Assembly: GCA_038252405.1 (NCBI GenBank)
Contig: JBBSAJ010000009.1
Location: forward strand, 3,670 to 67,669
Origin: Actinomycetes bacterium
GTDB taxonomy: Bacteria > Actinomycetota > Actinomycetes > Prado026
Length of the DNA: 64,000 nucleotides
Direction of reading: 5' to 3'
Shown: positions 1-56,250 of the stretch, piece after piece
How positions within the stretch are numbered: position 1 is the first letter of the stretch
Layout: each line of letters starts with the position of its first letter
Notes under the pieces: model-generated
Seen by the model: the letters and a program-made list of their open reading frames with translations, nothing else
What the model was told of the DNA's origin: nothing
Databases searched by the model: none
Translations under genes and position numbers: made by a program

Positions 1-140
1 GGAGTTGTGAGATGACGAAGACCGAGCTGATGGACCACTACACCGAGCGGGTCAACGCGGCGCTGGACGCCGGCCGCGAGGATCTGGTCGAGGACCTGAC
101 CCAGGCCTACCAGGCCGAGCGGTCCCGGCTGGCTGCCTGA
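1..140 (+). CDS. 3' end of an ORF entering from upstream, or a 42-aa small protein (ATG at 12: MTKTELMDHYTERVNAALDAGREDLVEDLTQAYQAERSRLAA)
   Basis: The frame is open from nt 3 to TGA 138-140, with ATG at 12-14 preceded by GGAG. It is too short for the supplied ORF track, and a MITE copy follows immediately. Confidence 0.25.
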   Translation, partial: SCEMTKTELMDHYTERVNAALDAGREDLVEDLTQAYQAERSRLAA

Positions 141-318
141 CCCCACCCCCCGGATCTGCATGAAGGGTCCCTTCTGTGCGTAAGGTCGCACCTTCTTGCC
201 TTTCACTCATGGCGAACATCGGACGCCGGCCCGGCACTGGGGCGGTCGGGACGGCGTGGGTGAAGGGTGGGTTTGTGCGACAGCGCGCACAGAAGGGGCC
301 CTTCATGCGGGTGGGGGG
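141..318. mobile_element. MITE-like inverted-repeat element, copy 1 (diverged left arm, intact right arm ...TGTGCGACAGCGCGCACAGAAGGGGCCCTTCATGCGGGTGGGGGG)
   Basis: It shares the arm consensus CCCCACCCGCATGAAGGGCACCTTCTGTGCGCACTGCCGCACAAACCCACCCTTCACGG and its reverse complement with the six other copies. It lies directly upstream of the GNAT gene at 330. Confidence 0.7.
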
Positions 319-329
319 ATGATCTTCGG

Positions 330-869
330 GTGAAGCTTCCGAGCAGTCCCGGCTTGCGCTTCGTCCCCCTCGACGAGTCGGTTTCGGACGACGTCCTGGA
401 CGGCGTGGTCGCCGTGGCGCTGTCCAACCCGGCCTTCCTGGCCAGCCACGAGGGGTCGGCCGACGGGCCGGGCCGCTTCGACCGTTCGATGCTCGAGCGC
501 GACCTCGCAGGGGCGGCGTTGGACCCTGACCGGCACTGCTACGCCATCGTGCTCACCGCCGGCGGCCCGGTGGTCGGCTGGGCCGACGTCCTCGACCGGC
601 ACCCGCGCGACGGGGTCCCCTGGATCGGGCTGCTGGAGGTCCACGGGGACCACCACCGGCGGGGCTATGGGCGGGCGGCCGCCGACGCGCTGGCCGAGCA
701 GCAGCGGTTCCGTGGCGAGACGCGGCTGCGGGTCGGCGTCGACGAGGGGAACGACTCGGCGTCCGGATTCTGGGCGTCGCTCGGCTACCGGGAGGTCGAC
801 GTCCGGGAACGGTCCAGCCCGTCCGGCCGGCTGTCGGTCTCGGTCCGCGAGCTCGACCTGGACGCCTGA
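330..869 (+). CDS. GNAT family N-acetyltransferase
   Basis: Frame of track ORF 267..869, with GTG at 330 (VKLPSSPGLRFVPLDES...) just past the MITE end. Acetyl-CoA-binding-like motif RRGYGRAA. Confidence 0.6.
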   Translation: MKLPSSPGLRFVPLDESVSDDVLDGVVAVALSNPAFLASHEGSADGPGRFDRSMLERDLAGAALDPDRHCYAIVLTAGGPVVGWADVLDRHPRDGVPWIGLLEVHGDHHRRGYGRAAADALAEQQRFRGETRLRVGVDEGNDSASGFWASLGYREVDVRERSSPSGRLSVSVRELDLDA

Positions 870-4354: not shown

Positions 4355-5611
4355 GTGACCCCCGAGGAGACGCTGTCCTGCGACGTGCTCGTGGTCGGCG
4401 CCGGACCCTCGGGATCGGCGGCGGCCGCCTGGCTGGCGCGCGCCGGCGTCGACGTCCTGCTCGTCGACGCGGCCACCTTCCCTCGGGACAAGCCCTGCGG
4501 CGACGGGCTCACCCCCCGGGCGATCGCTGAGCTGGAGGCGCTCGGGCTGGACGGCTGGCTGGACGGCCGGGTCCGCAGCTGGGGGCTGCGGGCGGACGGC
4601 TTCGGGCAGTCGCTGTACCTGCCGTGGCCGGGGGGCAGCCTGCCCCGCTACGGTGCGGCGGCACCGCGGCTCGAGCTGGACGCGCGGGTGCTCGGCGTGG
4701 CCACCGGCAGCGGCGCCCGGCTGCTGGAGAACGCTCGGGCCGTCGACGTGTCCATGGCCGGGGGACGGGTCGAGCAGGTGATCTTCCGCGACGGCTCGGG
4801 CGCCTACCCGGTGACCTGCCGTCGGCTGGTGGTCGCCGACGGCGCCCGTTCGCAGCTGGGCCGCCTGCTCGGCCGGGAGTGGCACCAGGACACGGCGTAC
4901 GGAGTGGCGGTCCGTGCCTACGCCAGCAGCGGGCGGTCCGACGACCCGTGGATCTCCTCGCACCTGGAGCTGCGCGGCGAGCGGGACGAGGTGCTCTCCG
5001 GATACGGCTGGGTGTTCCCGTTGGGGGAGGGCCAGGTCAACATCGGGGTGGGCACGCTGGCCACCGACCGGCACCCCGCCGACGTGAACCTGCGCCGGCT
5101 GCTGAACCAGTACACGGCCGAGCGGCGCGACGACTGGCAGCTGGACGGCCCGGTGCGTGCGCCGTGGTCGGCGCTGCTGCCCATGGGCGGGGCCGTGTCG
5201 AACGTGGCCGGCCCCAACTGGGTGCTGGTCGGGGACGCCGCCGGGTGCGTGAACCCGCTCAACGGCGAGGGCATCGACTACGGGCTGGAGACCGGCCGGC
5301 TGGCGGCCGAGGTGCTGGCGTCGTCGCGCGGCGGCGACCTGACCGAGGCCTGGCCGGGGCTGCTGCGCAGCAGCTATGGGCCGGCGTTCTCGGCTGCGCG
5401 CCGGCTCGCCGGGCTGCTGACCGTGCCGGGCTTCGTGCCGATGCTGGGGCCGGTGGGCATGCGGTCGCGGGCGCTCATGAAGCTCGCGCTGCGGGTCATG
5501 GGCAACTTCGTCACCGAGGAGGACACCGACGCGCTGGCCAGGGTGTGGCGGGCGGCGGGCCGGCTGTCCATCCGGCTGGACGAGCGCCCTCCCTTCTCCC
5601 CTCCCGCATGA
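4355..5611 (+). CDS. geranylgeranyl reductase family FAD-dependent oxidoreductase
   Basis: N-terminal FAD fold VLVVGAGPSGSAAAAWLA, GTG start after AGGAGG. The stop codon and the last residues (PPFSPPA) are encoded by MITE copy 2. Confidence 0.7.
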   Translation: MTPEETLSCDVLVVGAGPSGSAAAAWLARAGVDVLLVDAATFPRDKPCGDGLTPRAIAELEALGLDGWLDGRVRSWGLRADGFGQSLYLPWPGGSLPRYGAAAPRLELDARVLGVATGSGARLLENARAVDVSMAGGRVEQVIFRDGSGAYPVTCRRLVVADGARSQLGRLLGREWHQDTAYGVAVRAYASSGRSDDPWISSHLELRGERDEVLSGYGWVFPLGEGQVNIGVGTLATDRHPADVNLRRLLNQYTAERRDDWQLDGPVRAPWSALLPMGGAVSNVAGPNWVLVGDAAGCVNPLNGEGIDYGLETGRLAAEVLASSRGGDLTEAWPGLLRSSYGPAFSAARRLAGLLTVPGFVPMLGPVGMRSRALMKLALRVMGNFVTEEDTDALARVWRAAGRLSIRLDERPPFSPPA

Positions 5612-5658
5612 AGGTGCCCTTCTGTGCGTACTGCCGCACCAACCGCACCTTCATGAGG
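5598..5658. mobile_element. MITE-like element, copy 2 (solo left arm)
   Basis: CCCCTCCCGCATGAAGGTGCCCTTCTGTGCGTACTGCCGCACCAACCGCACCTTCATGAGG, with no partner arm. It lies between two convergent genes. Confidence 0.65.
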
Positions 5659-5680
5659 ACGGTGAGACGGACCGGGGCGC

Positions 5681-6373: not shown

Positions 6374-6518
6374 CCCACCCCCCACCCCTGCATGAAGGGC
6401 ACCTTCTGTGCGCATAGTGGAAGTTTCCTCCCCTTCACGCCCGGACGGCGACAGGCGTGCCGTCGTCCATGAAGGTGCGGTTTGTGCGGCAGTGCGCACA
6501 GAGGTGCCCTTCATGCGG
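6374..6518. mobile_element. MITE-like element, copy 3 (full: left arm, about 30 bp core, right arm)
   Basis: Both about 60 bp arms are present as inverted repeats. It occupies the divergent promoter region between the GNAT (-) and corA (+) genes. Confidence 0.75.
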
Positions 6519-6532
6519 AATAGGGTGGCGCG

Positions 6533-15863: not shown

Positions 15864-15979
15864 CCACCCCCCACCCGCATGAAGGGTCAGCCAGCGACCG
15901 GCAGGCCGTCGTCCGCCGGTAATGAGAAGGGTGGGTTGTTGCGGCAGTGCGCACAGAAGGGGCCCTTCATGCAGGGGGG
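15864..15979. mobile_element. MITE-like element, copy 4 (truncated left arm plus full right arm)
   Basis: CCCCACCCGCATGAAGGGTC...GGTGGGTTGTTGCGGCAGTGCGCACAGAAGGGGCCCTTCATGCAGGGGGG. The TGA stop of the GNAT gene 15967..16614 lies inside the right arm. Confidence 0.7.
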
Positions 15980-16614
15980 AGGCCGAAGAGGGGGCGGCAG
16001 CGGTCGAAGCCGCTGATGGTCACGTCGGGCCGGTCGCTGCGCGCCAGCCACGCCTCGCGGGTCAGCCGCAGGTGCACCATGACGTCGACGTCCGTGCCGC
16101 GGCGGTGCAGTGACTCGCCGTTGGGCAGGTACCCAAGGGACCGGGAGACGCCGAGCGAGGCCTGGTTGTCGTGCCACGCCTCGGTGATCGCTGCGTGCGC
16201 GGCCAGCGGACCGAACGCCAGGGCCAGTACTGCGGCGCGCATCTGCTTGCCGAGCCCCCGCCCCCGCGCCGACGTCACCAGGAACGACGACGTGTCCACC
16301 GTGCGCAGCGTGGGGAAGTCGTTCCCCTCCAGCTCCTGGGCTCCGATCAGCTCGCCGCCGGCCAGCACGGCGAAGTTCAGCCGCCACGCCTCAGGTCGCC
16401 AGCCCCCGTACCCGTGCCAGTACGCCTGGTGGACGACGGCGGCTCGGGTGGCACGCTCGTCCAGCCCCGGGTAGGTGGTGGCCGCCGGGTCGAGCTCGAC
16501 GTCGTCCGGCAGCAGGCGGGCCACGGTGGACTGGTCGGCCTCGGTCATCGGGCGCAGCACCAGGTCGGGTGTGGTCAGCAGCAGGTCGAACAGCGGCCAA
16601 TAGGGATGGGCCAT
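15967..16614 (-). CDS. GNAT family N-acetyltransferase (RimJ/RimL-like)
   Basis: 215 aa. It is flanked on both sides by MITE copies 4 and 5. Confidence 0.7.
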   Translation of the reverse strand: MAHPYWPLFDLLLTTPDLVLRPMTEADQSTVARLLPDDVELDPAATTYPGLDERATRAAVVHQAYWHGYGGWRPEAWRLNFAVLAGGELIGAQELEGNDFPTLRTVDTSSFLVTSARGRGLGKQMRAAVLALAFGPLAAHAAITEAWHDNQASLGVSRSLGYLPNGESLHRRGTDVDVMVHLRLTREAWLARSDRPDVTISGFDRCRPLFGLPPA

Positions 16615-16667
16615 GGGACGACGCTACGCACCGGTCGAAGTCTCACGCAGCCACTCGGCTGAGCGGA

Positions 16668-16733
16668 CCGTGAAGGGCGGGTTGTTACGGCCACACGCAC
16701 AGAAGGGTCCCTTCATGCGGGTGGGGGGTGGGG
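16668..16733. mobile_element. MITE-like element, copy 5 (solo right arm)
   Basis: CCGTGAAGGGCGGGTTGTTACGGCCACACGCACAGAAGGGTCCCTTCATGCGGGTGGGGGGTGGGG. It directly abuts the stop of the methyltransferase gene at 16734. Confidence 0.65.
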
Positions 16734-17561
16734 TCAGCGGAGGCGGGTGGCCTGCAGGGTGTAGCTGAGCGGCAGCCGCCACGGGCGGTCCAGCAGCCGG
16801 TACTCGCCGTCGTCGCCGCGCTGCATCCGGCCGGGCAGCGCGTCCCAGGGCACGCTGTCGTGCTCGACCAGCGTGGTCAGCTGTAGGCCGGCGTCCCGCA
16901 GTGCGGTGACGGTCTCGCCGAGCCCGTGGTTCCACTCGTGGGTCTCGTTGTGCTCGAAGGTCGTGTCGGTCTCGACGTAGGTGCCCGGCTCGTCGAGGAC
17001 CAGTGGCTCGGGCCGCTCGAAGTAGGGGTAGTCGACGACGAGCAGACCGTCCGGGCGGGCGTCGTCCAGGGCCCAGAGCATCGGGTGGCCCTCGCGGAGG
17101 AACAGCCGCCCGCCGGGCCGCAGCAGCGCGGCCACGACGTCAGCCCACCGCCGCACCTCGGGCAGCCAGCACAGCGCGCCGATCCCGGTGAACACCAGGT
17201 CGAACGACGACGGCTCCAGCGCCTCGGCCGCCGCGTACACGTCGGACTCCACGAAGTCGACGTCCGCACCGCAGTCCTGGGCGAGCCGGCGGGCTTGGGC
17301 CAGCGAAGCCGCGGAGAAGTCGAGCCCGGTCATCCGCGCGCCCAGCCGGGACAGCGACACGGTGTCGGTGCCGATGTGGCACTGCAGGTGCACCCCGCGC
17401 AGGCCGGTGAGGTCCCCGAGGCGCGGCAGGTCGAAGCGCACCACGTCACTGACGAACGTCGGGTCCTCGACGAAGCGCGCGAAGGCGTACTCGGGGGACG
17501 CCGCGTGGGCGGGCGCGCGCTCGTCCCAGCTGGCCCGGTTCACCGCTCGGTAGTCGCGCAT
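16734..17561 (-). CDS. class I SAM-dependent methyltransferase
   Basis: ATG 17561 is M102 of the track ORF, and the SAM-binding motif LDFSAASLAQARRLA is present. Confidence 0.65.
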   Translation of the reverse strand: MRDYRAVNRASWDERAPAHAASPEYAFARFVEDPTFVSDVVRFDLPRLGDLTGLRGVHLQCHIGTDTVSLSRLGARMTGLDFSAASLAQARRLAQDCGADVDFVESDVYAAAEALEPSSFDLVFTGIGALCWLPEVRRWADVVAALLRPGGRLFLREGHPMLWALDDARPDGLLVVDYPYFERPEPLVLDEPGTYVETDTTFEHNETHEWNHGLGETVTALRDAGLQLTTLVEHDSVPWDALPGRMQRGDDGEYRLLDRPWRLPLSYTLQATRLR

Positions 17562-18996: not shown

Positions 18997-18998
18997 CC

Positions 18999-19472
18999 AT
19001 GCGCACCATCGAGCAGCTGCTGCCCGACCACCCGTTCTTCACCGGGCTGGAGGAGCCGGAGCTCCGGCTGGTCTCCGGGTGCGCGACCAACGTGCACTTT
19101 CACCCCGGCGAGTTCCTGTTCAAGCAGGGCGGGTCCGCCGAGAGGTTCTTCATCGTGCGGCACGGGTCGGTCGCCATCGAGGTGCACAGTGCCGAGCGCG
19201 GCACTGTCGTCATCGACACCGTGGGGGACGGCGAGGTCATCGGCTTCTCCTGGCTGGTACCCCCGTACCGCTACGTGTTCGACGGCCGCGCGGTGGTGGA
19301 GACGAGCGCGGTCGCGTTCGACGGCACCTGCCTGCGCGGCAAGTGCGAGGACGACCCCCGGCTCGGCTACGCGCTCATGCAGCGGGTGTCCTCGGTGATG
19401 TACGAGCGCATGCAGGCCGCCCGGGTCCGGATGCTCGACATGTACGGGTCCCCCCGTGACCGCGCCCACTGA
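18999..19472 (+). CDS. cyclic nucleotide-binding domain protein (no DNA-binding domain) embedded in the hydrogenase operon
   Basis: 158 aa with a cNMP-binding fold (GEFLFKQGGSAERFFIVRHGSVAI). ATG 18999 follows GGGAGG. Confidence 0.65.
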   Translation: MRTIEQLLPDHPFFTGLEEPELRLVSGCATNVHFHPGEFLFKQGGSAERFFIVRHGSVAIEVHSAERGTVVIDTVGDGEVIGFSWLVPPYRYVFDGRAVVETSAVAFDGTCLRGKCEDDPRLGYALMQRVSSVMYERMQAARVRMLDMYGSPRDRAH

Positions 19473-20316: not shown

Positions 20317-20317
20317 C

Positions 20318-41407: not shown

Positions 41408-41411
<4 letters not shown>
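41109..41411 (-). CDS. hypothetical protein (100 aa, acidic)
   Basis: Translationally coupled downstream of pgm (pgm stop TGA 41408-41410 overlaps this gene's ATG at 41411). Confidence 0.4.
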
Positions 41412-43072
<1,661 letters not shown>

Positions 43073-43110
43073 CCGGTCATCCTGGGTGGGTGCGCGCCCG
43101 GATGTCCACG

Positions 43111-43270
43111 CCCCCCTCCCGCATGAAGGTGCCCTTCTGTGCGTGTGCTCGCACAAGTACGCCCTTCATGGACGCCGGGGGTGCCGCGCTGCTCGTCGTC
43201 CCCGACGGCTTCGCCGACAGTGAAAGGCGTGTTGCTGCGACGATGCGCCCAGAAGGTGCCCTTCATGCGG
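43111..43270. mobile_element. MITE-like element, copy 6 (full)
   Basis: Left arm CCCCCCTCCCGCATGAAGGTGCCCTTCTGTGCGTGTGCTCGCACAAGTACGCCCTTCATGG and right arm ...GTGAAAGGCGTGTTGCTGCGACGATGCGCCCAGAAGGTGCCCTTCATGCGG. It sits between the pgm start and the aldolase stop. Confidence 0.75.
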
Positions 43271-44212
43271 TCAGCTGGGCCGGGTCGTGGCATGGATGTC
43301 CATGACCGCGTGCAGCAGGTCGACGGCCTCGTCGTGCGGACGCTGGAACGAGTTGCGCCCCATGATCGTCCCGAAGCCGCCGCCCAGGGCGGTCTGCCGG
43401 TTCTCCTCGAGCACCTGCTCGGTGCCCTTGGCGGCGCCGCCGGAGAAGATGACGATGCGGCGTCCGGCGAAGGCGGACTGGACGACGTGTCGGACCCGGT
43501 CGGCGAGGGTGTCGAGGGGGACGCCGGCGGCCTCCAGCGCGGTGCGCGCGGCGTCGGACTCGATGTGCGCGGCCGGCGGCTTCACCTTGATGATGTGGGC
43601 GCCGAGCTGCGCGGCGATCTGGGCGGCGTAGGCGACGACGTCGACAGCGGTCTGGCCCTCCTTGGACACACCGGAGCCGCGCGGGTAGGACCACACGACG
43701 ACGACCAGCCCGGCGGCCTTGGCCTCGGCGGCGACGGCACGCAGCTCCTCGTACATCGCGTTCCGCCCGGCCGACCCCGGGTAGATGGTGAAGCCGACCG
43801 CGCTCGCACCCAGTCTCAGCGCGTCGGCGACGCTGGCGTTCAGGGCCGGCACCGGGTCGGGGCCGGAGTACAGCGAGTCGGAGTTGTTCAGCTTGAGGAT
43901 CAGCGGCAGCTGGCCGGCGTACTCCGCGGCGGCCGCCTCGATCGACCCGAGCGGCGCCGCGTGGGCGTTGCAGCCGGCGTCCAAGGCCAGCTGGAAGTGG
44001 TAGCGCGGGTCGTAGCCGGCCGGGTTGGGCGCGAAGCTGCGACCGGGACCGTGCTCGAACCCCTGGTCGACCGGGAGGATGACCAGTTTGCCGGTGCCGC
44101 CGAGCCGGCCGTGGCTCAGGATGCGGTGCAGGTTGGCCAGGGTCCCCGGCGTGTTGCCGTCGTACCAGGACAGGATCTCGCGGACGCGGTCGGTGGTCAT
44201 GTCTCTCAGCAT
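43271..44212 (-). CDS. class I fructose-bisphosphate aldolase (FbaB/DhnA type, DeoC/LacD family)
   Basis: Motifs LVILPVDQGFEHGP and IIKVK with the Schiff-base Lys. The stop abuts the MITE right end. Confidence 0.7.
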   Translation of the reverse strand: MLRDMTTDRVREILSWYDGNTPGTLANLHRILSHGRLGGTGKLVILPVDQGFEHGPGRSFAPNPAGYDPRYHFQLALDAGCNAHAAPLGSIEAAAAEYAGQLPLILKLNNSDSLYSGPDPVPALNASVADALRLGASAVGFTIYPGSAGRNAMYEELRAVAAEAKAAGLVVVVWSYPRGSGVSKEGQTAVDVVAYAAQIAAQLGAHIIKVKPPAAHIESDAARTALEAAGVPLDTLADRVRHVVQSAFAGRRIVIFSGGAAKGTEQVLEENRQTALGGGFGTIMGRNSFQRPHDEAVDLLHAVMDIHATTRPS

Positions 44213-44321
44213 CGGCCGCCGACGCCGCCCGGGCATGAGGCCAATGTCCCTACGGCCGTGGCGAAGGACGGCCGTCGCGTGGTAGTCCGGTGGGAGTGCC
44301 CGTGCACCGACCCGATGGAGG

Positions 44322-44732
44322 ATGCCGATGAGCCCCAGCCTCCCCCCGCCGGCTCAGGGCCGTGACGACCTCGGCCACCTGATCCTGCTCGCCGCCGCCG
44401 ACGTGGCGGCGATGCCCTGGGAGCCGCTGCGCGGGCTCGCGGGGGTGCACCACAAGGTGGTGTGGCAGTCCGGGGACACCGTGCTCGGCTTCATCCGGGT
44501 GGACCCGGGGGCGGTGAAGCCCGAGCACAGCCATCACGGCGCCCACCACCACATCCTGATCACCCAGGGCTCGGCGACCATGCTGGGTCGGCCGTTCACC
44601 GCGGGGGCGTACCTGTACATCCCGCCGGGCACCCTGCACGAGGTGGCCGACGTCGGGCCCGAGGGCTGCACCTTCTTCTACACCTACCGCCCGGTGGAGA
44701 TCGCCACAGCCAAGCCCCCCCGTCCCGCATGA
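44322..44732 (+). CDS. cupin domain protein
   Basis: HSHHGAHHHILI cupin metal motif. The last residues and the stop (KPPRPA*) are encoded by MITE copy 7. Confidence 0.6.
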   Translation: MPMSPSLPPPAQGRDDLGHLILLAAADVAAMPWEPLRGLAGVHHKVVWQSGDTVLGFIRVDPGAVKPEHSHHGAHHHILITQGSATMLGRPFTAGAYLYIPPGTLHEVADVGPEGCTFFYTYRPVEIATAKPPRPA

Positions 44733-44861
44733 AGGGCACCTTCTGTGCGCACTGCCGCACAAACCCACCCTTCACGGACGCCGTCAACCCGCGACCCGCC
44801 GTCCGATGAAGGGTAGGAAGGTTCGGCCACGCGCACAGAAGGTGCCCTTCATGCGGGTGGG
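44715..44861. mobile_element. MITE-like element, copy 7 (full; closest to the consensus)
   Basis: CCCCCGTCCCGCATGAAGGGCACCTTCTGTGCGCACTGCCGCACAAACCCACCCTTCACGG...GATGAAGGGTAGGAAGGTTCGGCCACGCGCACAGAAGGTGCCCTTCATGCGGGTGGG. Confidence 0.75.
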
Positions 44862-45482
44862 TCAGGCGGGGAGGGTGGCCAGGACGAGGCAGTCCAGCGC
44901 GTGCCGCTCACCGGTGTCGCTGCTGACCGCGCGGGTCACCGTCTCGGCCCGCACCACCTCCAGCGGTCCACCGTGGAGGTCCTCGACGACGTCGTCGGCC
45001 GTGTAGAGCGCGGCCGGGTCCTGCGGACCGCCGACGCCCTCGGTGAGGTTGCGGCTGTCGTGCGCGATGACCAGCAGGTGCCCGCCGGGGGCCACCCCGC
45101 GAGCCGCCGCCCGCAGCACGGGTCGCCGCTCGTCCGCGGCCACCTGCAGGTAGACGACCAGCACCAGGTCGAACGCCTGGGCCGGCGGCTGGTAGGACAG
45201 CAGGTCGGCCTGCACCACGTGCAGCCGGTCGGCCGCCAGCTCGCCGAGCCGCTCCCCGGCGATCCGCTGGGCCCGCGCGAGGGCCACCCGGGAGAAGTCC
45301 ACCGCGGTGGACGCCCAGCCCTGCTCGGCCAGCCAGATGGCGTTGCGCCCCTCGCCGGCTGCCAGGTCGAGCGCCCGTCCCGGCGTCAGCCGCGCGGCGA
45401 CCTGCTCGACGAACACGTTCGGCCCGGCCGACCACACCAGGTCGCGCTCGGCGTAGCGGGCATCCCAGGTGGTGCTGTCCAC
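44862..45482 (-). CDS. class I SAM-dependent methyltransferase
   Basis: SAM-binding motif LDLAAGEGRNAIWLA. Confidence 0.7.
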   Translation of the reverse strand: MDSTTWDARYAERDLVWSAGPNVFVEQVAARLTPGRALDLAAGEGRNAIWLAEQGWASTAVDFSRVALARAQRIAGERLGELAADRLHVVQADLLSYQPPAQAFDLVLVVYLQVAADERRPVLRAAARGVAPGGHLLVIAHDSRNLTEGVGGPQDPAALYTADDVVEDLHGGPLEVVRAETVTRAVSSDTGERHALDCLVLATLPA

Positions 45483-49522: not shown

Positions 49523-50209
49523 ATGCAGAACAGGCAGGAGCGGGCGCCGCGGGGCCTGCTCACGGCCGACGAGGTTCAGCAGCTCCTCGACATCGACCGC
49601 TCCACCATCTACCGGATGGCCGGCGACGGCCGGCTGCCGGCCGTGAAGATCGGCCGTCAGTGGCGGTTCCCGGCCGACCGGATCGCCGCGCTGCTCGAAG
49701 TCGGCACCCAAGCCCCGGCCGCGAACCCCGCGTTCGACACGACCTCGTCGCAGCCCCTGAGCCCGCCGCTGTCGGCCGAGCTCGCTGAGTCGGTGCTGGA
49801 CGTGGCCGCCGGTGCGCTGGACGTGATGATGGTCGTCACGGACATGACGGGGCGGCCGGTGACGAATGTGGTCAACCCGTGCGCCCGATTCGTCCACGAG
49901 TCCAGCGACCCCGCGACCCTGGCTGTGTGTATCGAGGAGTGGCGGCAGCTGGCTGACGACGTCCACTTCGAGTCCCGGTTCCGCCTCGGCCGCCTCGGTT
50001 TCGAGTGCGCCCGGGCGTTCATCCGGGTCGGCTCGGAGCTGGTCGGCATGGTGCTGGCCGGCGGTGTGGCCCCGGTCGGTGATGAATCCGGCGACCTGTT
50101 CCAGCTCGACCCCGGACGGCGCCAGCAGGTGCTGTCCACGCTACCCAAAGTGGCTGCGGCACTGTCTCGCGTTGCCACCCCGACGAAGGACCTAAGGAGC
50201 GCAGGATGA
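49523..50209 (+). CDS. transcriptional regulator: N-terminal excisionase/MerR-type HTH plus a C-terminal PocR-like sensor domain
   Basis: HTH LLTADEVQQLLDIDRSTIYRMAGDGRLPAVKIGRQWRFP. The C-terminal ~170 aa are PocR-like and carry 3 Cys. Alternative start GTG 49505. Confidence 0.55.
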   Translation: MQNRQERAPRGLLTADEVQQLLDIDRSTIYRMAGDGRLPAVKIGRQWRFPADRIAALLEVGTQAPAANPAFDTTSSQPLSPPLSAELAESVLDVAAGALDVMMVVTDMTGRPVTNVVNPCARFVHESSDPATLAVCIEEWRQLADDVHFESRFRLGRLGFECARAFIRVGSELVGMVLAGGVAPVGDESGDLFQLDPGRRQQVLSTLPKVAAALSRVATPTKDLRSAG

Positions 50210-51441
50210 AGCGACTGCTCGTGCTCGGCGGTGGAACCGCAGGCACGATGGCCGTGAACAAGCTGCGGCCGCGGCTGGCCCGCGACGAGTGGCAAATCAC
50301 TGTTGTCGACCCGAGTGACACGCACTACTACCAGCCCGGTTACCTGTTCGTCCCGTTCGGCATCTACCAGCCCGAGGAGATCGTGAAGCCGCGCAAGCGC
50401 TTCATCCCCGAGGGCGTCGACCTGGTCCAGGCCGAGGTCGACAAGGTCCTGCCGGAGGACAACAAGGTCCTGCTCGTCGGTGGCCAGGAGCTGCCGTACG
50501 ACTACTTGATCATCGCCAGCGGCACCACGCCGCGGCCGGACCAGACCCCCGGTATGGCCGATGACATGGGCGGCAGCGTCCACGAGTTCTTCAGCTACGA
50601 GGGCGCCAAGCGGCTGGCCGAGAAGCTGAAGACCTGGGAGGGCGGCAAGCTGGTCGTCCACCTGACCGAGATGCCGATCAAGTGCCCGGTCGCCCCGCTG
50701 GAGTTCAGCTTCCTGGCCGAGGCCTTCTTCACCGAGAAGGGCATGCGGGACCAGGTCGAGATCACCTACGTGACCCCGCTCGAGGGCGCGTTCACCAAGC
50801 CGGTGGCGTCCAAGCACCTGGGCGGCATGTTCGACGAGCGCAAGATCCAGCTCGAGGCCGACTTCATGATCGAGTCGATCGACCCCGAGGCCAAGAAGCT
50901 GGTCTCGTTCGACGAGCGTGAGGTGCCCTACGACCTGCTGGTCACCATTCCGATCAACATGGGCGCCGACTTCGTGGCCCGGTCCGGCCTCGGCGACGAC
51001 CTGAACTACGTCCCGGTGGACAAGGAGACGTTGCTCTCCAACGCCTACGACAACATCTTCGCGATTGGCGACGCGTCGAACATCCCGGCGTCCAAGGCCG
51101 GCTCGGTGGCGCACTTCTCGATGGACCTGTTCCCGGACAACTTCGTCAACCACATCAACGGCCGTCCGATGACCGAGAAGTTCGACGGGCACGCCAACTG
51201 CTTCATCGAGAGCGGGCACGGCAAGGGTCTGCTGATCGACTTCAACTATGAGACCGAGCCGCTCCCCGGCAAGTACCCGCTGCCCGGCGTCGGCCCCTTC
51301 AGCCTGCTGAAGGAGACCGAGATCAACCACTGGGGCAAGATGATGTTCCGCTGGATGTACTGGAACCTGCTGCTCCCCGGCAAGGAGCTCCCGCTGCCCG
51401 CCCTGATGTCGATGGCCGGGAAGCAGACGGAGGGCGAGTGA
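50206..51441 (+). CDS. sqr: sulfide:quinone oxidoreductase-like FAD-dependent pyridine nucleotide-disulfide oxidoreductase
   Basis: N-terminal LVLGGGTAGT FAD motif. Candidate redox cysteines lie in KCPVAPLE and HANCF. ATGA overlap with the regulator gene. Confidence 0.65.
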   Translation: MKRLLVLGGGTAGTMAVNKLRPRLARDEWQITVVDPSDTHYYQPGYLFVPFGIYQPEEIVKPRKRFIPEGVDLVQAEVDKVLPEDNKVLLVGGQELPYDYLIIASGTTPRPDQTPGMADDMGGSVHEFFSYEGAKRLAEKLKTWEGGKLVVHLTEMPIKCPVAPLEFSFLAEAFFTEKGMRDQVEITYVTPLEGAFTKPVASKHLGGMFDERKIQLEADFMIESIDPEAKKLVSFDEREVPYDLLVTIPINMGADFVARSGLGDDLNYVPVDKETLLSNAYDNIFAIGDASNIPASKAGSVAHFSMDLFPDNFVNHINGRPMTEKFDGHANCFIESGHGKGLLIDFNYETEPLPGKYPLPGVGPFSLLKETEINHWGKMMFRWMYWNLLLPGKELPLPALMSMAGKQTEGE

Positions 51442-52142
51442 TGACCGAGGTCGTCTCGGCCCCGTCGCTGGACCAGCGGCTCGACCTGCTCAGCGAGCAG
51501 GTCGGGGCCATCGCCGAAGAGCTGCGCCGGCAGCGCCAGAGCCGGGAGCAGTGGTCGGAGCTGGTCACCGACCTGACCCCGGTCACCAAGGGCGTCATGG
51601 ACGTCGCCACCCGTGAGCTGGCGGACCTGAGCGAGGACGTCAGCCTCGAGGATGCCGTTCGGTTCCTCAAGACGACGGCCCGCGAGCTGCCCCGGCTCGA
51701 GGCTCTGATGGCGCAGCTGGACTCGATGAGCCAGCTGGTCAGCGAGGTCATGCCCCTGGTCGGACCGGGGGTGGGCAAGCTCACCGACGTGATGCAGCAG
51801 CTGGACGACAAGGGCTACTTCATGTTCGCCCAGGGCGGCATGGAGATCGCCGACAAGGTCGTCACGTCCTTCGACCACGACGACGTCGTGGCGCTGGGTG
51901 ACAACGTCGTCCTGATCCTCAACACGGTCAGGGAGATGACCCAGCCTGAGGTGATGGGGATGCTCAAGCGCACCTTCGTCACCGTGCAGGAGGTCGAGGA
52001 GGCGCACGTCGAGCCCCCGTCCATGTTCGCGCTGATCAAGGAGATGCGCGACCCGCAGACTCGCCGCGGGCTGTCCCGCGTGGTGAGCATGCTCCGCACC
52101 GTCGGTGCCGAGCAGCCCGAATCGTCAACCCCAACCAGCTAG
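51438..52142 (+). CDS. DUF1641 domain protein (commonly partnered with SQR-type oxidoreductases)
   Basis: ATGA overlap with the SQR-like gene. Confidence 0.5.
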   Translation: MMTEVVSAPSLDQRLDLLSEQVGAIAEELRRQRQSREQWSELVTDLTPVTKGVMDVATRELADLSEDVSLEDAVRFLKTTARELPRLEALMAQLDSMSQLVSEVMPLVGPGVGKLTDVMQQLDDKGYFMFAQGGMEIADKVVTSFDHDDVVALGDNVVLILNTVREMTQPEVMGMLKRTFVTVQEVEEAHVEPPSMFALIKEMRDPQTRRGLSRVVSMLRTVGAEQPESSTPTS

Positions 52143-52158
52143 GAAGGTTCGAACCACC

Positions 52159-52473
52159 ATGCCCGTGACCACGATGAACGGCCGGGAGATCCACGTCGAC
52201 GACGAGGGCTTCCTCACCGCGTACGACGAGTGGGACGAGGACCTCGGCAAGGTCCTCGCCGCCAACATCGGCGTCGACATGACCGACGAGCACTGGAAGG
52301 TCATCAAGTTCCTGCGGGACGACTTCAAGGTGACCGGCGAGACCGCGACCACCCGCCGGGTGCAGTCCGTCGGCGGCTTCTCCACCAAGGACCAGTTCAC
52401 GCTGTTCCCGAAGAAGCCGGCCAAGAAGATGTCCTACATCGCCGGGCTGCCCAAGCCGCACGGCTGCGTCTGA
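52159..52473 (+). CDS. TusE/DsrC/DsvC family sulfur-relay protein
   Basis: C-terminus ...PKPHGCV matches the conserved DsrC/TusE penultimate-Cys tail. RBS AGGAAGG. Confidence 0.65.
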   Translation: MPVTTMNGREIHVDDEGFLTAYDEWDEDLGKVLAANIGVDMTDEHWKVIKFLRDDFKVTGETATTRRVQSVGGFSTKDQFTLFPKKPAKKMSYIAGLPKPHGCV

Positions 52474-52497
52474 CCACCGAGGACGGAGAAACAGACT

Positions 52498-53019
52498 ATG
52501 AGTGCACCCATCGTCCCGAGTTTCGGCGACGACGAGGAGACCGACCGCAAGTTCGTCCTCATCTGCTCCAAGGGCAACCTGGACATGGCCTACCCGGCCC
52601 TCGTCTTGGCCAACGCCGCCCTGGGTGAGGGCATCGAGACCCACCTGTTCTTCACCTTCTGGGGCTTCGACATGATCACCAAGTCCCGGATGAACGACCT
52701 GAAGTTCACGCCCACCGGCAACACCGCAATGCACCTGCCGATCGGCGGGATCCGGATGCCGCAGGCACTGGCGCCGCTCCCCGGCGTCCAGGCGGTGGCG
52801 ACGAAGATGCTCAAGGACCAGATCGCCGAGCTCGGTATCCCCGAGGTCCCGGAGTTCCTGGACCAGATCGTCGCGGCCGGTGGCCACCTGTGGGCCTGCC
52901 GGATGTCGGCGGACATGAACCACCTGACCGAGTCGGACCTGCGCGACGACGTCGAGGGCATCATCAACGCCTCGGACTTCATCGAGATGACCGACGGCGC
53001 CCAGCTGCTCTTCATCTGA
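52498..53019 (+). CDS. DsrE/DsrF-like family sulfur-carrier protein
   Basis: 174 aa with the LWACRMS conserved-cysteine motif. Confidence 0.55.
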   Translation: MSAPIVPSFGDDEETDRKFVLICSKGNLDMAYPALVLANAALGEGIETHLFFTFWGFDMITKSRMNDLKFTPTGNTAMHLPIGGIRMPQALAPLPGVQAVATKMLKDQIAELGIPEVPEFLDQIVAAGGHLWACRMSADMNHLTESDLRDDVEGIINASDFIEMTDGAQLLFI

Positions 53020-53032
53020 CCCCCGCCTGAAC

Positions 53033-53076
53033 TTGTCAGGGTGAGGACGAGCTATAGCTCGTCCTCACCCTGACAA
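53033..53076. terminator. Palindromic hairpin P4 (TTGTCAGGGTGAGGACGAGC-TATA-GCTCGTCCTCACCCTGACAA), 20-bp perfect stem
   Basis: It lies 14 bp after the dsrE-like stop and shares the TGTCAGGGTGA core with P1-P3. Confidence 0.65.
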
Positions 53077-53111
53077 CTGTGCGGGGGCGGGCGGCTGAGA
53101 TAGTGAGCGCC

Positions 53112-53432
53112 ATGCCCAACGTCCTCACTCGCTACCGGATCATGGCCTACGTCACCGGCGTCGGTCTGGTCCTGCTCGTCTGCGTCGCCATGCCGCTGAA
53201 GTACTTCGCCGACTCACCGGGCATGGTCCACGTCATCGGGATGCTGCACGGCTACCTCTACATCCTGTACATCATCGCGACGTTCGACCTCGGGTCCCGG
53301 CGGCGCTGGCCGCTGCTCAAGATGCTGCTCGTCATGCTGTCCGGCACGATCCCGTTCGCCGTCTTCTTCGTCGAGCACCGGATCGTCAAGGAGGAGCTCG
53401 CCCGGACTGGCAGCCCCGGCAGCGCCGCCTGA
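53112..53432 (+). CDS. DUF3817 family small membrane protein
   Basis: ATG 53112 is M12 of the track ORF. Three transmembrane helices; the protein is typically genome-adjacent to SURF1 in Actinobacteria. Confidence 0.55.
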   Translation: MPNVLTRYRIMAYVTGVGLVLLVCVAMPLKYFADSPGMVHVIGMLHGYLYILYIIATFDLGSRRRWPLLKMLLVMLSGTIPFAVFFVEHRIVKEELARTGSPGSAA

Positions 53433-54167
53433 GCCGGTGGCTGCCTCCTTGCGGACGGCGGCCGCCCACATCCACACCGTGGCCGCGGCGAACAGCCACC
53501 ACTGCAGCGCGTAGGTCAGGCTCTGCACCGACCAGTGGGTGGTCGTCGGCGGCAGCGGGGGAGGCACGGTGTCCAGCGCGGGTGTCGTGGGCGGCTGCTG
53601 GTCGGCGAGCAGCACCGAGCCGTCGTAGAGCCGGTACGGCCACCGGTTGACCAGGTCAGCGGTGGTGACCCGCTCCACCTGCCCGGCGGGCAGCACGCTG
53701 GTCATCCCGGCTGGCAGGGGGGTCTCCGAGGGCGCCAGGTAGCCGCGCACGGTCACCGGACCGGCCGGCGGTGCCGAGACGGTGACGTCCGGCTGTCCCT
53801 GCCCTGGCACCCAGCCGCGGACCACCGTGGCTGCCTGCCCCGCGGACGTCACGAGCGGGGTCACCACGTAGAAGCCGCCCTTGCCCTGCAGGTCGTGGCC
53901 TGGGGAGAGCAGCTGATGGGCCACGTCGTACCGGCCGGTCACGGTCACCGCGGCCCCGCGGTTGTCCGCCGTGACCAGGTTCTGCGCGCCCACCGCCACG
54001 GCCAGCGGCCGGGCCGTGCTCAGCGCTGGGGCGGTCGCCGGGGGGCCCGAGTCACGGGTGCGGGCCCGGTCCCACTGCCACCCGCCGAGCGTCACGAAGG
54101 CGGCGATAGCGAGCAGCGCCCCGACGTGGACGGCGAGCCAGCGGGGCTGCAGCAGGAACCGGTACAT
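53214..54167 (-). CDS. SURF1 family (cytochrome oxidase assembly) protein; the annotated 3' 219 bp overlap DUF3817 antisense
   Basis: ATG 54167 gives MYRFLLQPRWLAVHVGALLAIAAFVTLGGWQWDRA. The second transmembrane helix ends near 53432, yet there is no in-frame stop until 53214. Confidence 0.55.
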   Translation of the reverse strand: MYRFLLQPRWLAVHVGALLAIAAFVTLGGWQWDRARTRDSGPPATAPALSTARPLAVAVGAQNLVTADNRGAAVTVTGRYDVAHQLLSPGHDLQGKGGFYVVTPLVTSAGQAATVVRGWVPGQGQPDVTVSAPPAGPVTVRGYLAPSETPLPAGMTSVLPAGQVERVTTADLVNRWPYRLYDGSVLLADQQPPTTPALDTVPPPLPPTTTHWSVQSLTYALQWWLFAAATVWMWAAAVRKEAATGSGGAAGAASPGELLLDDPVLDEEDGERDRAGQHDEQHLEQRPAPPGPEVERRDDVQDVEVAVQHPDDVDHAR

Positions 54168-54212
54168 CGGGGACCACGGTACGTCCCACACCGCAGGTGA
54201 CTGCGCAGTAAC

Positions 54213-54887
54213 GTGCACAGCAGGACTGAGGAAGGGGCACCGTGGCCACTTCGGGGACCTCTGCGGTCGAGGTCCGCCTTTCGCGGGCCGTCGGTGGCTG
54301 TGCTGGACTCGCTGACCGGGCTCGGTGGCCAGCTCACCGCGCCGTACCCGGAGAAGCTGATCTACGACGTCGTTGGGCTTCCGGCGATCCGGGGTCAGGC
54401 GCTGGTCGACAACGTGGTCCAGCAGGCCGAGGAGCTGGAGGTCGCCAAGGACCACGTCGTGGTCCGCACCGAGCCCACGAGGGGACGGTCGCCCGGGTGC
54501 TGTCGTCCTCGGTGAAGGTGCTGACGCCGTTCGAGGTCGCCGCCATCCACGGCGCCGACCGGGCGGAGTCGGTGAACCTCTCCAACAACAAGACCGACGA
54601 GCACCAGGCGCTCGAGGTGCAGGACGTGGTCGCCGCCCTGGGCCTCACCGCAGACGTGGGCCCGTCCACCCGCTGGGGGCTCGAGCAGCGCAGTGGGCCC
54701 ATCGATGTGGACAGCGGGATGCGAACCTCGCTGCCGCGAGTGTTCTCCGCCGGTGACATCACCGAGCACGATGGAAAGGTCCAGCTGCTCTTGATCGGGC
54801 TGGGCGAGGCGGCCACCGCGGTGACCAACGCGACGGCGGTCGTGCACCCCGGCGCGAAGCTGTTCCCCGGCCACTCCTCAGAGTTCC
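54213..54887 (+). pseudogene. ferredoxin-NADP+ reductase (thioredoxin-reductase-like, YumC type) remnant with internal deletions and a frameshift
   Basis: One frame retains SVAVLDSLTGLGGQLTAPYPEKLIYDVVGLPAIRGQALVDNVVQQAEE. The C-terminal segment HEGTVARVLSSSVKVLTPFEV...VFSAGDITEHDGKVQLLLIGLGEAATAVTNATAVVHPGAKLFPGHSS sits in a different frame. The GxGxxG FAD segment and about 170 aa of the NADP domain are missing. Confidence 0.55.
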
Positions 54888-54966
54888 CCTGGCCGGGTCG
54901 CAAGCCCCCGACCCGCGTCTGTAAGACTCAGCTGCAGCAGGCGCGGCAGCTATGGAAAGGATCACC

Positions 54967-56250
<1,284 letters not shown>

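Follow-up and report, generated by a model that had tools for sequence, protein, structure and literature searches.

Repeat copies in the window

A palindromic repeat lies between the convergent cupin and methyltransferase genes (copy 7 in Table 1). It is one of seven loci that carry repeats of the same family in the window, that is, in the whole stretch of 64 kb of DNA that was analysed, which comes from an uncultured, high-G+C actinomycete. An nhmmer profile of the repeat arms found 11 arms in the window, with 0 expected by chance, and all of them are confined to the seven loci listed in the original prediction. Short patterns are similarly enriched. The 23-mer GCATGAAGGGNNCCTTCTGTGCG, with at most three mismatches allowed, has 10 matches in the window against 0.00 expected. 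The patterns GAAGGNNNCCTTC (10 matches, 0.03 expected) and CCCTTCATG (11 matches, 0.19 expected) occur in the window exclusively within the seven loci.

The description of copy 2 as a left arm only, of copy 5 as a right arm only, and of copy 4 as having a truncated left arm was borne out, as were the G/C-rich termini, with C prevailing on the left and G on the right. Two features of the original prediction had to be corrected. Contrary to the claim, the reverse complementarity of the two arms is imperfect rather than exact, and the middle of the arms pairs poorly. Furthermore, the full copies in the window are 159-183 bp long rather than 110-180 bp; these lengths are counted from profile position 1 and take in about 17 nt of the C or G tract at each end. 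The suggestion that the family is a major genome feature is a statement about local density, namely seven loci in 64 kb of the window and the same seven sites in the 42 kb read of a 311-kb contig of a relative.

Table 1. Repeat copies, their nhmmer arms, and flanking duplications in the window
Feature	Coordinates (strand)	Form or sequence	nhmmer arms (strand)	Setting or remark
Copy 1	141..324	full doublet	T-type 143-215 (+), A-type 318-252 (-)	between the stop of the upstream + strand gene (TGA 138-140) and GNAT gene 330-869
Copy 1 direct repeat, left	115..133 (+)	CCGAGCGGTCCCGGCTGGC		in the 3' end of the upstream gene
Copy 1 direct repeat, right	339..357 (+)	CCGAGCAGTCCCGGCTTGC		in the 5' end of the downstream GNAT gene
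Copy 2	5594..5662 (+)	solo A-type arm	5594-5662 (+)	FAD-binding gene 4355-5611 stops at the TGA of GCATGAAGG
Copy 3	6374..6532	full doublet	T-type 6376-6444 (+), A-type 6528-6461 (-)	between divergent genes GNAT 5681-6373 (-) and CorA 6533-7525 (+)
Copy 4	15864..15988	internally deleted doublet; left terminus reaches only GCATGAAGG	right arm 15982-15919 (-), complete	GNAT gene 15967-16614 (-) stops at the TGA of the right arm
Copy 5	16659..16734 (-)	solo A-type arm	16731-16664 (-)	right after the stop of methyltransferase gene 16734-17864 (-), upstream of GNAT gene 15967-16614 (-)
Copy 6	43105..43284	full doublet	43106-43178 (+), 43281-43211 (-)	junction of class I aldolase (DeoC family) gene 43271-44236 (-) and phosphoglucomutase gene 41408-43156 (-)
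Copy 6 target duplication, phosphoglucomutase-start side	43069..43109 (+)			matches empty alleles at 35-36 of 41 positions
Copy 6 target duplication, aldolase 3' end side	43263..43303 (+)			matches empty alleles at 32-33 of 41 positions
Copy 7 (reported locus)	44711..44870	full doublet, 160 bp	A-type 44715-44784 (+), T-type 44866-44802 (-)	between convergent cupin 44322-44732 (+) and methyltransferase 44862-45482 (-) genes; the cupin stop is the TGA of GCATGAAGG

Architecture and folding

The element is a non-coding imperfect palindrome of 136-183 bp, formed by two inverted arms of approximately 50-55 bp each and a spacer of 10-35 nt between them. The arms are bordered by CATGAAGG...CCTTCATG, and the outer part of each arm is the 22-mer GCATGAAGG-NNN-CCTTCTGTGCG. 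Across the family, the doublet lengths cluster at 136-139 and 158-162 bp, and 20 of the 28 doublets combine an A-type arm with a T-type arm. Conservation is highest at the terminus. A hypervariable C tract adjoins the element at one end and a G tract at the opposite end; the two tracts are inverted, not direct, relative to each other and have no sharp outer boundary in base composition.

The doublet folds into a hairpin of about 70 bp with an energy of -109.8 kcal/mol on one strand and -119.4 kcal/mol on the other (z about -12). The outer 26 bp or so and the inner CCCTTCA/TGAAGGG pair well, and the middle of the arms pairs poorly: 14 of 22 positions pair there in copy 7 by a hand count, and only two consensus pairs are retained there by RNAalifold in an alignment of ten doublets. 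The outer 22-24 nt of an arm (CGCATGAAGG-NNN-CCTTC-T-GTGCG) may also fold as a small hairpin, and the DNA fold of this part consists of two short helices, of 5 and 4 bp, with unpaired bases between them. The three-base "loop" is mostly identical in the two arms of an element, and the corresponding pairs appear as both-sided changes in the consensus fold. The motif CGTCC is frequent at the inner border of the arms, where it pairs with GGACG of the partner arm; read on the opposite strand, the inner border of many arms is CGTCCATGAAGG.

The consensus A-type arm folds by itself (z = -4.6). On the other hand, a solo arm in its genomic context folds no better than shuffled sequence (z = -1.25), and covariation within a single arm is not significant (Fisher p = 0.09); both count against a REP-like reading. 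The GTAG tag of RAYT-associated REPs is absent from the arms. Arms of doublets and solo arms are equally conserved, in a comparison that is biased because the loci were retrieved by the exact 22-mer.

Gene context

The genes adjoining the copies are mutually unrelated, both in the window and at the other loci. In 33 of 66 arms the stop codon of a gene falls in the interval from 35 nt before to 4 nt after GCATG, and 11 of the 66 arms (about one in six) themselves supply the stop codon of the neighbouring gene. We do not consider the stop codon to be a part of the element, because the distance from GCATG to the nearest upstream stop triplet varies between 5 and 42 nt and the upstream stops follow ordinary usage (TGA:TAG:TAA = 26:9:4).

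Three GNAT genes adjoin copies in the window. The idea that the repeats delimit gene cassettes was rejected, as no GNAT neighbour was found at the other loci. Integron attC sites with their cassettes were rejected as well: the copies are dispersed among housekeeping genes, and neither an array nor an integrase accompanies them. The setting varies, copy 3 being located between divergent gene starts and other copies inside operon junctions. Approached from either side, the element shows a C-rich tract and then a hairpin of great stability. Because there is no T run, it does not qualify as a canonical intrinsic terminator, and a scan of the regions around copies 6 and 7 for canonical promoters and terminators found none.

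Distribution

Confinement of the family to the window would have spoken against a mobile element; it is not so confined, being present in 48 metagenome contigs and two MAG contigs. Several metagenome contigs start or finish inside an element.

A known structured RNA with conserved gene context, the other reading considered at the outset, is at odds with the unrelated neighbours and with the Rfam searches. The whole window has no matches at the gathering threshold, and a permissive scan of copy 7 produced only chance-level microRNA-type hairpins (best E = 0.28). There are no tRNA or tmRNA genes in the window. Phage or plasmid origin was rejected, as there was no match in viral contigs or PLSDB plasmids. 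The literature on MITEs or REPINs in Streptomyces and Actinobacteria does not describe this family, and its sequence strings are absent from the papers searched by string. Judged by its sequence, the family has no match in the databases and literature searched.

Strain comparison

Copy 6 is present in the window and in locus L051 and cleanly absent from L021, L052, L053 and L054 (strains 94-96% identical). In the empty allele, the aldolase and phosphoglucomutase genes are 4 nt apart. The third-position distance to the window is 6.1% for L051, 8.8% for L052 and 13.6% for L021; these distances place the gain of copy 6 in an ancestor shared by the window and L051. At least one copy has been gained after the divergence of strains that are about 95% identical. 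This is the only clean empty site found. Copy 7 is present in L021 and L051 and missing from L052, L053 and L054, where only the C and G tracts are left; this "empty" allele is probably a deletion footprint.

Copies decay by internal deletion, which produces solo arms and short palindromic remnants. At the site of copy 2, L056, L057 and L058 contain a full 160-bp doublet, L059 contains a remnant of about 60 nt, and the window has the solo arm. At the site of copy 4, there are relatives with a complete left arm and an interior of 190-290 bp, and L059 retains only a 37-nt remnant. Similarly, a doublet in L037 corresponds to a solo arm in L010 at one site, and a doublet in L002 to an 83-bp remnant made of two terminal hairpins in L005. 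Copy 5 is present in L056, L057 and L058, and L059 has about 214 nt of unrelated sequence in its place. Orthologous filled copies of copy 1 were found in L027, L056, L057 and L058.

Orthologous copies diverge at about the rate of third codon positions. Most of them differ by 4-11%, compared with 6-18% at third codon positions in the same strain pairs; the exception is copy 1 in L056, which differs by 20% and has large indels. In orthologous copy 3, the three-base loop has changed jointly in both arms and the centre is identical, which points to gene conversion between copies.

Thus the insertion-site polymorphism by which the original prediction separated a mobile element from a conserved cis element is observed, in the form of both presence or absence and deletion variants between strains 94-96% identical. 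The presence and absence of copies at the same sites in close strains indicate a small mobile repeat of the REP, REPIN or MITE kind.

Flanking duplications

Target-site duplications, also anticipated, were not found in the usual form. There is no fixed short duplication among the 28 doublets: the flank comparisons are at background for 25 of them and borderline for L019, and copies 1 and 6 have long repeats, of 19 and 41 bp respectively. The 19-bp repeats of copy 1 match in 17 of 19 positions, and their alignment score of 14 exceeds those of all 756 control flank pairs (maximum 12). In the case of copy 6, forty bases of the empty allele align on both flanks of the element. The resulting 41-bp duplication is imperfect, with 9 mismatches in 41 positions against about 3.6 expected from neutral divergence, and the last 8 nt (TCATGCGG) on the aldolase side double as the element's terminus. 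The sequence at the clean empty site of copy 6 is CCCACCCAGGATGACCGCATGA; it resembles the terminus, and the junction lies within the shared CCGCATGA. In the flank of L037, CCCGCATG is repeated beside the terminus. Comparison of the filled and missing alleles of copy 7 showed no duplication.

Neither HUH nor DDE transposition predicts the 41-bp imperfect duplication at copy 6, and this is a further point against a REP-like reading.

Search for a mobilising enzyme

No transposase of any kind was found in the 64-kb window, among 35 neighbouring genes scanned against Pfam, or in the Pfam annotations computed beforehand for about 110 kb of related contigs. Pfam scans of 30 window genes and of 20 genes adjoining elements at other loci likewise revealed none. 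Clustering of the open reading frames from the window and the first 50 loci revealed no recurrent neighbour and no candidate for an autonomous partner. Neither the 59 loci nor the window contained a longer, transposase-carrying element with these ends, which a MITE-like family might be expected to have. The gene located between two inverted arms in L031 is an ordinary DUF72-type gene, judged by eye from its sequence motifs. Since no transposase was found, a mobilising enzyme can only be inferred.

Comparison with known repeat families

We favour, with moderate confidence, the reading of these palindromic repeats as a lineage-specific family, non-coding and non-autonomous, that resembles REP doublets (BIME/REPIN). 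The original prediction of a MITE or a structured REP-like element outside the named families is supported by the spread of the copies, their unrelated neighbours, the absence of Rfam matches and the polymorphism between strains. Of its two parts, the REP/REPIN-like one fits better than a classical MITE, because there is neither a short fixed target duplication nor a transposase-bearing parent.

REP units are defined as sequences of 20-40 bp that carry, at one end, a conserved GTAG (or CGTC) tag left unpaired (PMC3733652). In REP doublets heterodimers are preferred, and they are located downstream of ORFs, between co-directional and convergent genes (PMC3733652). REP singlets are decayed doublets, and long palindromic remnants are left after excision (PMC3337134). 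The present elements are similar to BIMEs and REPINs (RAYT, Y1/HUH) in being head-to-head imperfect palindromes with a variable spacer that form one long hairpin. They are likewise mostly heterodimeric, extragenic, situated mostly downstream of genes (convergent or co-directional) and lineage-specific, with singlets and "long palindromic" remnants as decay products and with no short target duplication. However, the unit is larger (about 50 bp with a nested inner hairpin, compared with 20-40 bp), and so is the doublet (136-183 bp compared with about 70-110 bp). There is no unpaired GTAG tag, and the ends carry variable C/G tracts. In REPIN-RAYT systems a single-copy RAYT is flanked by the repeats, whereas no RAYT was observed in the window or in the neighbours examined. 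REPIN-RAYT systems have more than about 100 copies per genome; the local figure here is seven loci in 64 kb. Finally, the host is an actinomycete, and two copies have flanking duplications of 19-41 bp.

CGTC-tagged REPs (Di Nocera et al. 2013) have stems of 8-9 bp, loops of 4-5 nt and CCA tails, lack a dedicated transposase, and were reported in five phyla, Actinobacteria not among them (PMC3733652). They too form palindromic head-to-head heterodimers, and CGTCCATGAAGG at the inner border of many arms is reminiscent of their tag. However, their tag is unpaired, whereas the CGTCC motif here pairs with GGACG of the partner, and the sequences are not similar.

Imperfect palindromes of 100-170 bp, namely Correia elements of Neisseria and ERIC and YPAL of enterobacteria, reside in transcribed intergenic regions, are polymorphic between strains and form long RNA hairpins. 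The present family shares the hairpin-forming imperfect palindrome, the intergenic location and the polymorphism between strains. Its nested arms, its C/G tracts and its sequence are shared by none of these families. The inverted termini of Correia elements are 26 bp long and their target duplication is TA, whereas the present family showed no duplication of fixed length. PATEs are non-autonomous derivatives of IS200/IS605 and resemble the present family in being non-coding, with hairpin-forming subterminal ends and no target duplication. They differ in that they retain the two different ends, left and right, of an identifiable parent IS and lack palindromic symmetry; the present element has no known parent IS.

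Mode of spread and alternative explanations

Entire doublets have been copied into numerous intergenic sites that are unrelated to one another. On the REP-like reading, the enzyme that copies them would act in trans from a gene located elsewhere in the genome. A route via single-stranded DNA (HUH/Y1, RAYT or IS200/IS605-like) would be favoured over DDE cut-and-paste, given that the ends can form hairpins, that no short target duplication is seen, that arms are organised as heterodimers and that deletion derivatives occur. By analogy with REP and Correia elements, transcripts entering the element would probably end there, or be stabilised or processed. This effect is predicted because half of the arms lie at most 35 nt from a stop codon and because a C-rich tract and a stable hairpin are met from either side. 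Any such effect may be a by-product of a largely selfish repeat.

One possibility, which we regard as doubtful, is that this is a REPIN-like replicator of Actinomycetes that spreads by an unrecognised route, using either a hairpin-specific enzyme of a new kind or no dedicated transposase. The likeness of the target to the terminus of the element (the C tract plus CCGCATGA) would then guide insertion, tens of base pairs of the target could be duplicated, and the arms would be kept complementary by conversion, of which the joint loop changes in orthologous copy 3 would be an instance. Such a duplication would allow entry into overlapping or abutting operon junctions with neither gene destroyed.

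A classical MITE would be an internally deleted derivative of a DDE insertion sequence, with the outer stems of 22-26 bp as its terminal inverted repeats, mobilised by cut-and-paste or copy-paste by the parent IS. Long inverted termini, small size, the lack of coding capacity, the number of copies and the insertion polymorphism (copy 6) are all MITE features, and the most conserved part is the terminus, as expected of an inverted repeat bound by a transposase. Nevertheless, we consider this explanation unlikely. No fixed short direct repeat accompanies the 28 doublets (copies 1 and 6, with 19-41 bp, and the borderline L019 being the exceptions), the flanking C/G tracts are inverted and without a sharp outer boundary, and none of the 59 loci has a longer element with these ends that carries a transposase.

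Spread could also have proceeded with no dedicated transposase, by template switching or break repair on another copy, primed by microhomology between the terminus (the C tract plus CCGCATGA) and similar targets. The terminus-like empty site of copy 6 with its junction in the shared motif, the excess of mismatches in its duplication, the repeat beside the terminus in L037 and the coordinated loop change in copy 3 are all consistent with this mechanism, and CGTC-type REPs are also found without a dedicated transposase (PMC3733652). However, the basis is one clean empty site and one suggestive flank, the discrete lengths and the inherited A/T asymmetry of the arms are equally expected of enzymatic copying, and dispersal to many sites by repair accidents alone would be unusual. 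We find it improbable.

It is very unlikely that the repeats are neither selfish nor mobile and are maintained by selection on the host as bidirectional terminators, stabilisers of mRNA 3' ends or modulators of translation. REPs of E. coli that are situated near stop codons affect mRNA stability, Rho-dependent termination and translation, and by analogy the nearby stop codons and the C-rich tract with a very stable hairpin from either side could suggest such a role. However, most orthologous copies diverge about as third codon positions do and are freely deleted between strains, copy 3 lies between divergent starts and others in operon junctions, and four related contigs (L021, L052, L053, L054) lack copy 6, with the genes 4 nt apart. 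The lack of a T run argues against a canonical intrinsic terminator, and function alone leaves near-identical sequences of 160 bp at unrelated loci unexplained.

Lastly, a small protein encoded by the arms (ATG AAG GGN CCC TTC TGT GCG..., MKG(P/T)FCA...) can be dismissed: although the conserved 22-mer starts with ATG and all four glycine codons (GGN) occur, with variation at the third position, this reading is rejected because the variable positions do not fit codons, being positions 2 and 3 of codon 3 and position 1 of codon 4, which is the loop of GAAGG-NNN-CCTTC; moreover, there are 1- and 2-nt indels within the conserved part, the sequence before the ATG is C-rich and not a ribosome-binding site, and the downstream part of the arm varies in length.

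Implications

In Proteobacteria, the interspersed palindromic repeats known as REP/BIME/REPIN, ERIC and Correia have been studied well, and in the REP/RAYT literature searched REPs are not reported in Actinobacteria. The family described here reshapes gene ends, because at about one arm in six the upstream gene takes its stop codon from the repeat, and because operon genes are set apart by copies; gene callers and annotators of MAGs should therefore mask it. The long hairpins are a plausible cause of contig breaks. The states of presence, absence and decay vary between strains that are about 95% identical, and provide a ready marker for strain-resolved metagenomics. If long target duplications and terminus-like targets prove to be general, the insertion route of the family would lie outside the current models of REPIN and MITE mobility.

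Structure of the repeat

All seven loci of the original prediction carry copies of one palindromic repeat (Table), as seen on reading each of them. The arm profile, built with nhmmer from an alignment of arms (units of about 50-55 bp), identified 11 arms in the window, all within these loci. The pattern GCATGAAGGGNNCCTTCTGTGCG with at most three mismatches has 10 matches in the window (0.00 expected by chance), GAAGGNNNCCTTC has 10 (0.03 expected) and CCCTTCATG has 11 (0.19 expected); none of the three matches beyond the seven loci. The G+C content of the window is 70-76% throughout, except 66-70% at 50-56 kb. Solo and truncated arms occur as originally described.

Coordinates of the element copies and associated features (window unless another contig is named; L0xx, loci or contigs from related strains or carrying the element)
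Feature	Position	Remarks
Copy 1	~141-324
Copy 2	~5594-5662
Copy 3	~6374-6532
Copy 4	~15864-15988
Copy 5	~16659-16734
Copy 6	~43105-43284
Copy 7	~44711-44870
Direct repeats at copy 1	115-133, 339-357	19 bp, 17/19 matching
Duplication at copy 6	43069-43109, 43263-43303	41 bp, imperfect
GNAT genes	330-869, 5681-6373 (-), 15967-16614 (-)	each adjoins one or two copies
CorA start	6516-6535; L056 9992-10001	few nt from G-rich end of copy 3
Copy 4 orthologues	L056 19466-19817, L057 19462-19812, L058 19709-20124	arms 190-290 bp apart
Flank of arm L043_1990- (- strand)	L043 ~1990-2020	TGACCCCTGACCCCTGACCCCCC
Hydrogenase-type cluster	17560-22464	no copies
Low-G+C region	50000-56000	G+C 0.66-0.70 vs 0.72-0.76 elsewhere; no copies

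The consensus of 84 distinct arms from the window and other loci runs from a C-rich tract through C(C/T)GCATGAAGG-NNN-CCTTCTGTGCG and YRYKG-CCGCA to a variable segment followed by CCCTTCA(T/C)GGACG. The outer 22-mer is the best-conserved portion; with the preceding C it could form a small hairpin CGCATGAAGG-NNN-CCTTC-T-GTGCG, whose computed DNA fold has helices of 5 and 4 bp with unpaired bases between them. The arm borders form an 8-9 bp inverted repeat CATGAAGG(G)...(C)CCTTCATG enclosing TGTGCG...CGCACA. The outer C tract has no sharp boundary, the frequency of C climbing gradually from ~0.5 to 0.8. It is hypervariable, with indel differences even between orthologous copies, and may be partly target-derived.

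Doublets, that is, two inverted arms, cluster at lengths of 136-139 and 158-162 bp. The computed fold of the doublet is a single imperfect hairpin of ~70 bp on both strands (-109.8 and -119.4 kcal/mol, z ~ -12), and the A-type arm consensus also folds on itself (z = -4.6). Contrary to the original description, the right arm does not mirror the left exactly as its reverse complement: the arms pair well in the outer ~26 bp and in the inner CCCTTCA/TGAAGGG, and poorly in their middles. Since an A-type arm (CGCACAAAC...) is combined with a T-type arm (CGCA-N-Y-TTCC...) in 20 of 28 doublets, the element is asymmetric with conserved internal loops. The three-base NNN is GCA, TGC or GTC in most arms and usually identical between both arms of one element, so that the long hairpin remains paired there; the both-sided changes in the consensus fold are at these positions. 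A coding reading of the arms was rejected, as the variable positions correspond to the hairpin loop rather than to third codon positions, and some indels would shift the frame.

Insertion junctions

Copy 6 is flanked by a duplication of the gene junction, one copy of which holds the aldolase 3' end and the other the phosphoglucomutase start with its ribosome-binding region. Forty bases of each empty allele align on both sides of the element, with 78-90% identity between the duplication copies and the empty alleles. The target ends in CCCACCC...CCGCATGA, similar to the element terminus, and the junction lies inside the common CCGCATGA. Both the duplication and the terminus-like target hint that the element may spread without a transposase, via template switching or break repair.

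Copy 1 lies at a co-directional junction. Its direct repeats score higher than all 756 controls and are kept, though decayed, in L056, L058 and L027. A similar repeat, of CCCGCATG, was observed at one end of the element in L037. No short target duplication of constant length was found in the search for target-site duplications; copies 1 and 6 have the longer repeats instead. Because of these junctions a classical DDE-type MITE is the less likely reading; a MITE was one of the two options of the original proposal. As there is just one clean empty site, the junction features are leads.

Gain, loss and decay between strains

Strain contigs 94-96% identical to the window were retrieved via the aldolase and CorA proteins. 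Their third-position distances to the window are 6.1% (L051), 8.8% (L052), 8.9% (L056), 10.3% (L058), 13.6% (L021) and 15% (L059). Empty-site alleles in related strains, which the original prediction proposed to look for, exist for copy 6: only the window and L051 have it, and in L021, L052, L053 and L054 the aldolase-phosphoglucomutase gap is 4 nt (TGACCGCATGAGT). This places a clean gain of copy 6 in the common ancestor of L051 and the window. The window, L051 and L021 all have copy 7; L052, L053 and L054 lack it but keep tracts of C and of G at the site (TGA-GCCCCACCACCC-TGGCGA-GGGGCTAG). Since L021 is farther from the window and still has copy 7, these tracts are better read as the footprint of a deletion than as a never-occupied site.

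At the site of copy 2, where the window has a solo arm, L056, L057 and L058 have an entire doublet of 160 bp and L059 retains a short remnant. Each lineage has its own internal deletion in copy 4. L056, L057 and L058 have, between the arms of this copy, a variable stretch of non-repeat sequence that the window lacks; the called MFS gene upstream has 252, 362 and 481 aa, respectively, versus 503 aa in the window. Elsewhere, one site carries a doublet in L037 and a solo arm in L010 and L047, and another a doublet in L002 and an 83-bp palindrome of two terminal hairpins in L005. These decay derivatives agree with those described for REPINs (PMC3337134).

Orthologous copies differ mostly by 4-11%, similar to the 6-18% at third codon positions in the same strain pairs; in one comparison, copy 1 in L056, the divergence reaches 20% and large indels occur. 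Taken as a whole, the element is little constrained. Its near-neutral divergence and the free loss of copies make a regulatory element kept purely by host selection unlikely. In copy 3 the loop of both arms is GCA in the window, TGC in L056, L057 and L058, and GTC in L059, and the central ~50 bp is near-identical across all five. Conversion from other copies might explain this coordinated change, as might selection to keep the terminal stem perfectly paired. In copy 7 of L051 the loop has changed in one arm only.

Gene context

The window genes flanking the copies encode three GNAT acetyltransferases, an FAD-binding oxidoreductase, CorA, an MFS transporter, two methyltransferases, phosphoglucomutase, a class I aldolase and a cupin. 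At other loci the neighbours are likewise unrelated, including DUF2267, aldo-keto reductase, MazF, an RpfB-like protein, TatD, PPK2 and aldehyde dehydrogenase. The other window genes are those of an ordinary chromosome, such as hydrogenase, citrate synthase and aminotransferases, and include no transposase. Two of the three GNAT genes are bracketed by the element on both sides, a cassette-like layout. Since no GNAT neighbours were found at other loci, this adjacency is probably a coincidence.

The hydrogenase-type cluster encodes a 4Fe-4S dicluster protein, a cNMP-binding protein, an NAD-binding/Fe-S oxidoreductase, an NADH-quinone-oxidoreductase 20-kDa-type subunit and the [NiFe]-hydrogenase large subunit. 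The low-G+C region contains, by the annotation of L051, SURF1-, DsrC- and pyridine-nucleotide-oxidoreductase-type genes.

For 33 of 66 evaluable arms, a gene that reads toward the arm has its stop codon in the interval from 35 nt upstream to 4 nt downstream of GCATG, and in 11 of these 33 (in the window, copies 2, 4 and 7) this stop is the TGA of GCATGAAGG itself. At copy 2 the element-supplied stop is secondary, as comparison with relatives shows that a 19-nt deletion took the original TAA. The stop codon as part of the element was considered and rejected: the nearest upstream stop triplet lies 5 to 42 nt from GCATG and codon usage is ordinary. In L043 three TGA triplets 7 nt apart provide a stop in all reading frames right before the arm. 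The CorA start is so near copy 3 that the element fills the whole gap between two divergent gene starts; copy 3 must contain or adjoin the promoters and ribosome-binding sites of both genes.

Host and distribution

The nearest named relatives of the window proteins are from MAGs labelled 'Actinomycetes bacterium' (97%), followed by Nanopelagicales and Jiangellales MAGs for the aldolase (~85%) and Frankiaceae and Propionibacteriaceae MAGs for CorA (~75%). The copies are not unique to the window. The exact 23-mer occurs in only 2 of 185,579 species-representative genomes, an Actinomycetes MAG and a high-G+C contig binned as Bacteroidales, and the 22-mer in 48 contigs from the JGI metagenome collection, concentrated in a few samples; viral contigs and plasmids gave no matches. 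The Bacteroidales label is probably a binning error. The contig concerned (L002, CAWALO010000026.1, 122 kb, in a MAG labelled 'uncultured Bacteroidales bacterium') has high G+C in the 8 kb examined and shares ~3.3 kb, at 85% identity, with L005, a metagenome contig that carries the element. The locus or contig start or end falls within the element in L007, L011, L028, L031, L033 and L002, the last being an 8-kb excerpt whose end is no contig end. This pattern suggests, for the metagenome contigs, that short-read assemblies break at the element because of its long hairpin or its repetition.

The element had been recognised as no named family, and the searches bear this out. Rfam gave no matches at the gathering threshold; when copy 7 was scanned permissively for a known structured RNA family, all matches were at chance level (best E = 0.28). 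No paper containing its sequence strings was found in the literature search. The element is a real repeat family of a lineage of uncultured actinomycetes, without a match in the databases and literature searched.

Nature of the element

A selfish, non-autonomous palindromic repeat, copied as a whole doublet and decaying afterwards, fits the data. The REP-like half of the original proposal stands, REP doublets (BIME/REPIN) being the closest known kind. Common to both are head-to-head heterodimers with hairpin-forming ends, the lack of a short duplication, location downstream of genes, and singlets and palindromic remnants as decay products. Unlike REPs, the element lacks the defining GTAG tag, and its unit is larger. 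Neither a RAYT, the REP transposase, nor any other transposase was found in the ~300 kb examined, and the search for a transposase-bearing relative was likewise negative there; since this is a small fraction of a genome, we can only infer a mobilising enzyme. The element is not a canonical intrinsic terminator. From its geometry and its likeness to REP and Correia repeats, it might plausibly affect transcripts through termination, 3'-end protection or processing.

The element is a new member of the known interspersed palindromic (REP/REPIN/MITE-like) repeats. Its junction features merit follow-up, and it would be of greater interest if the long target duplications and the missing transposase prove general.
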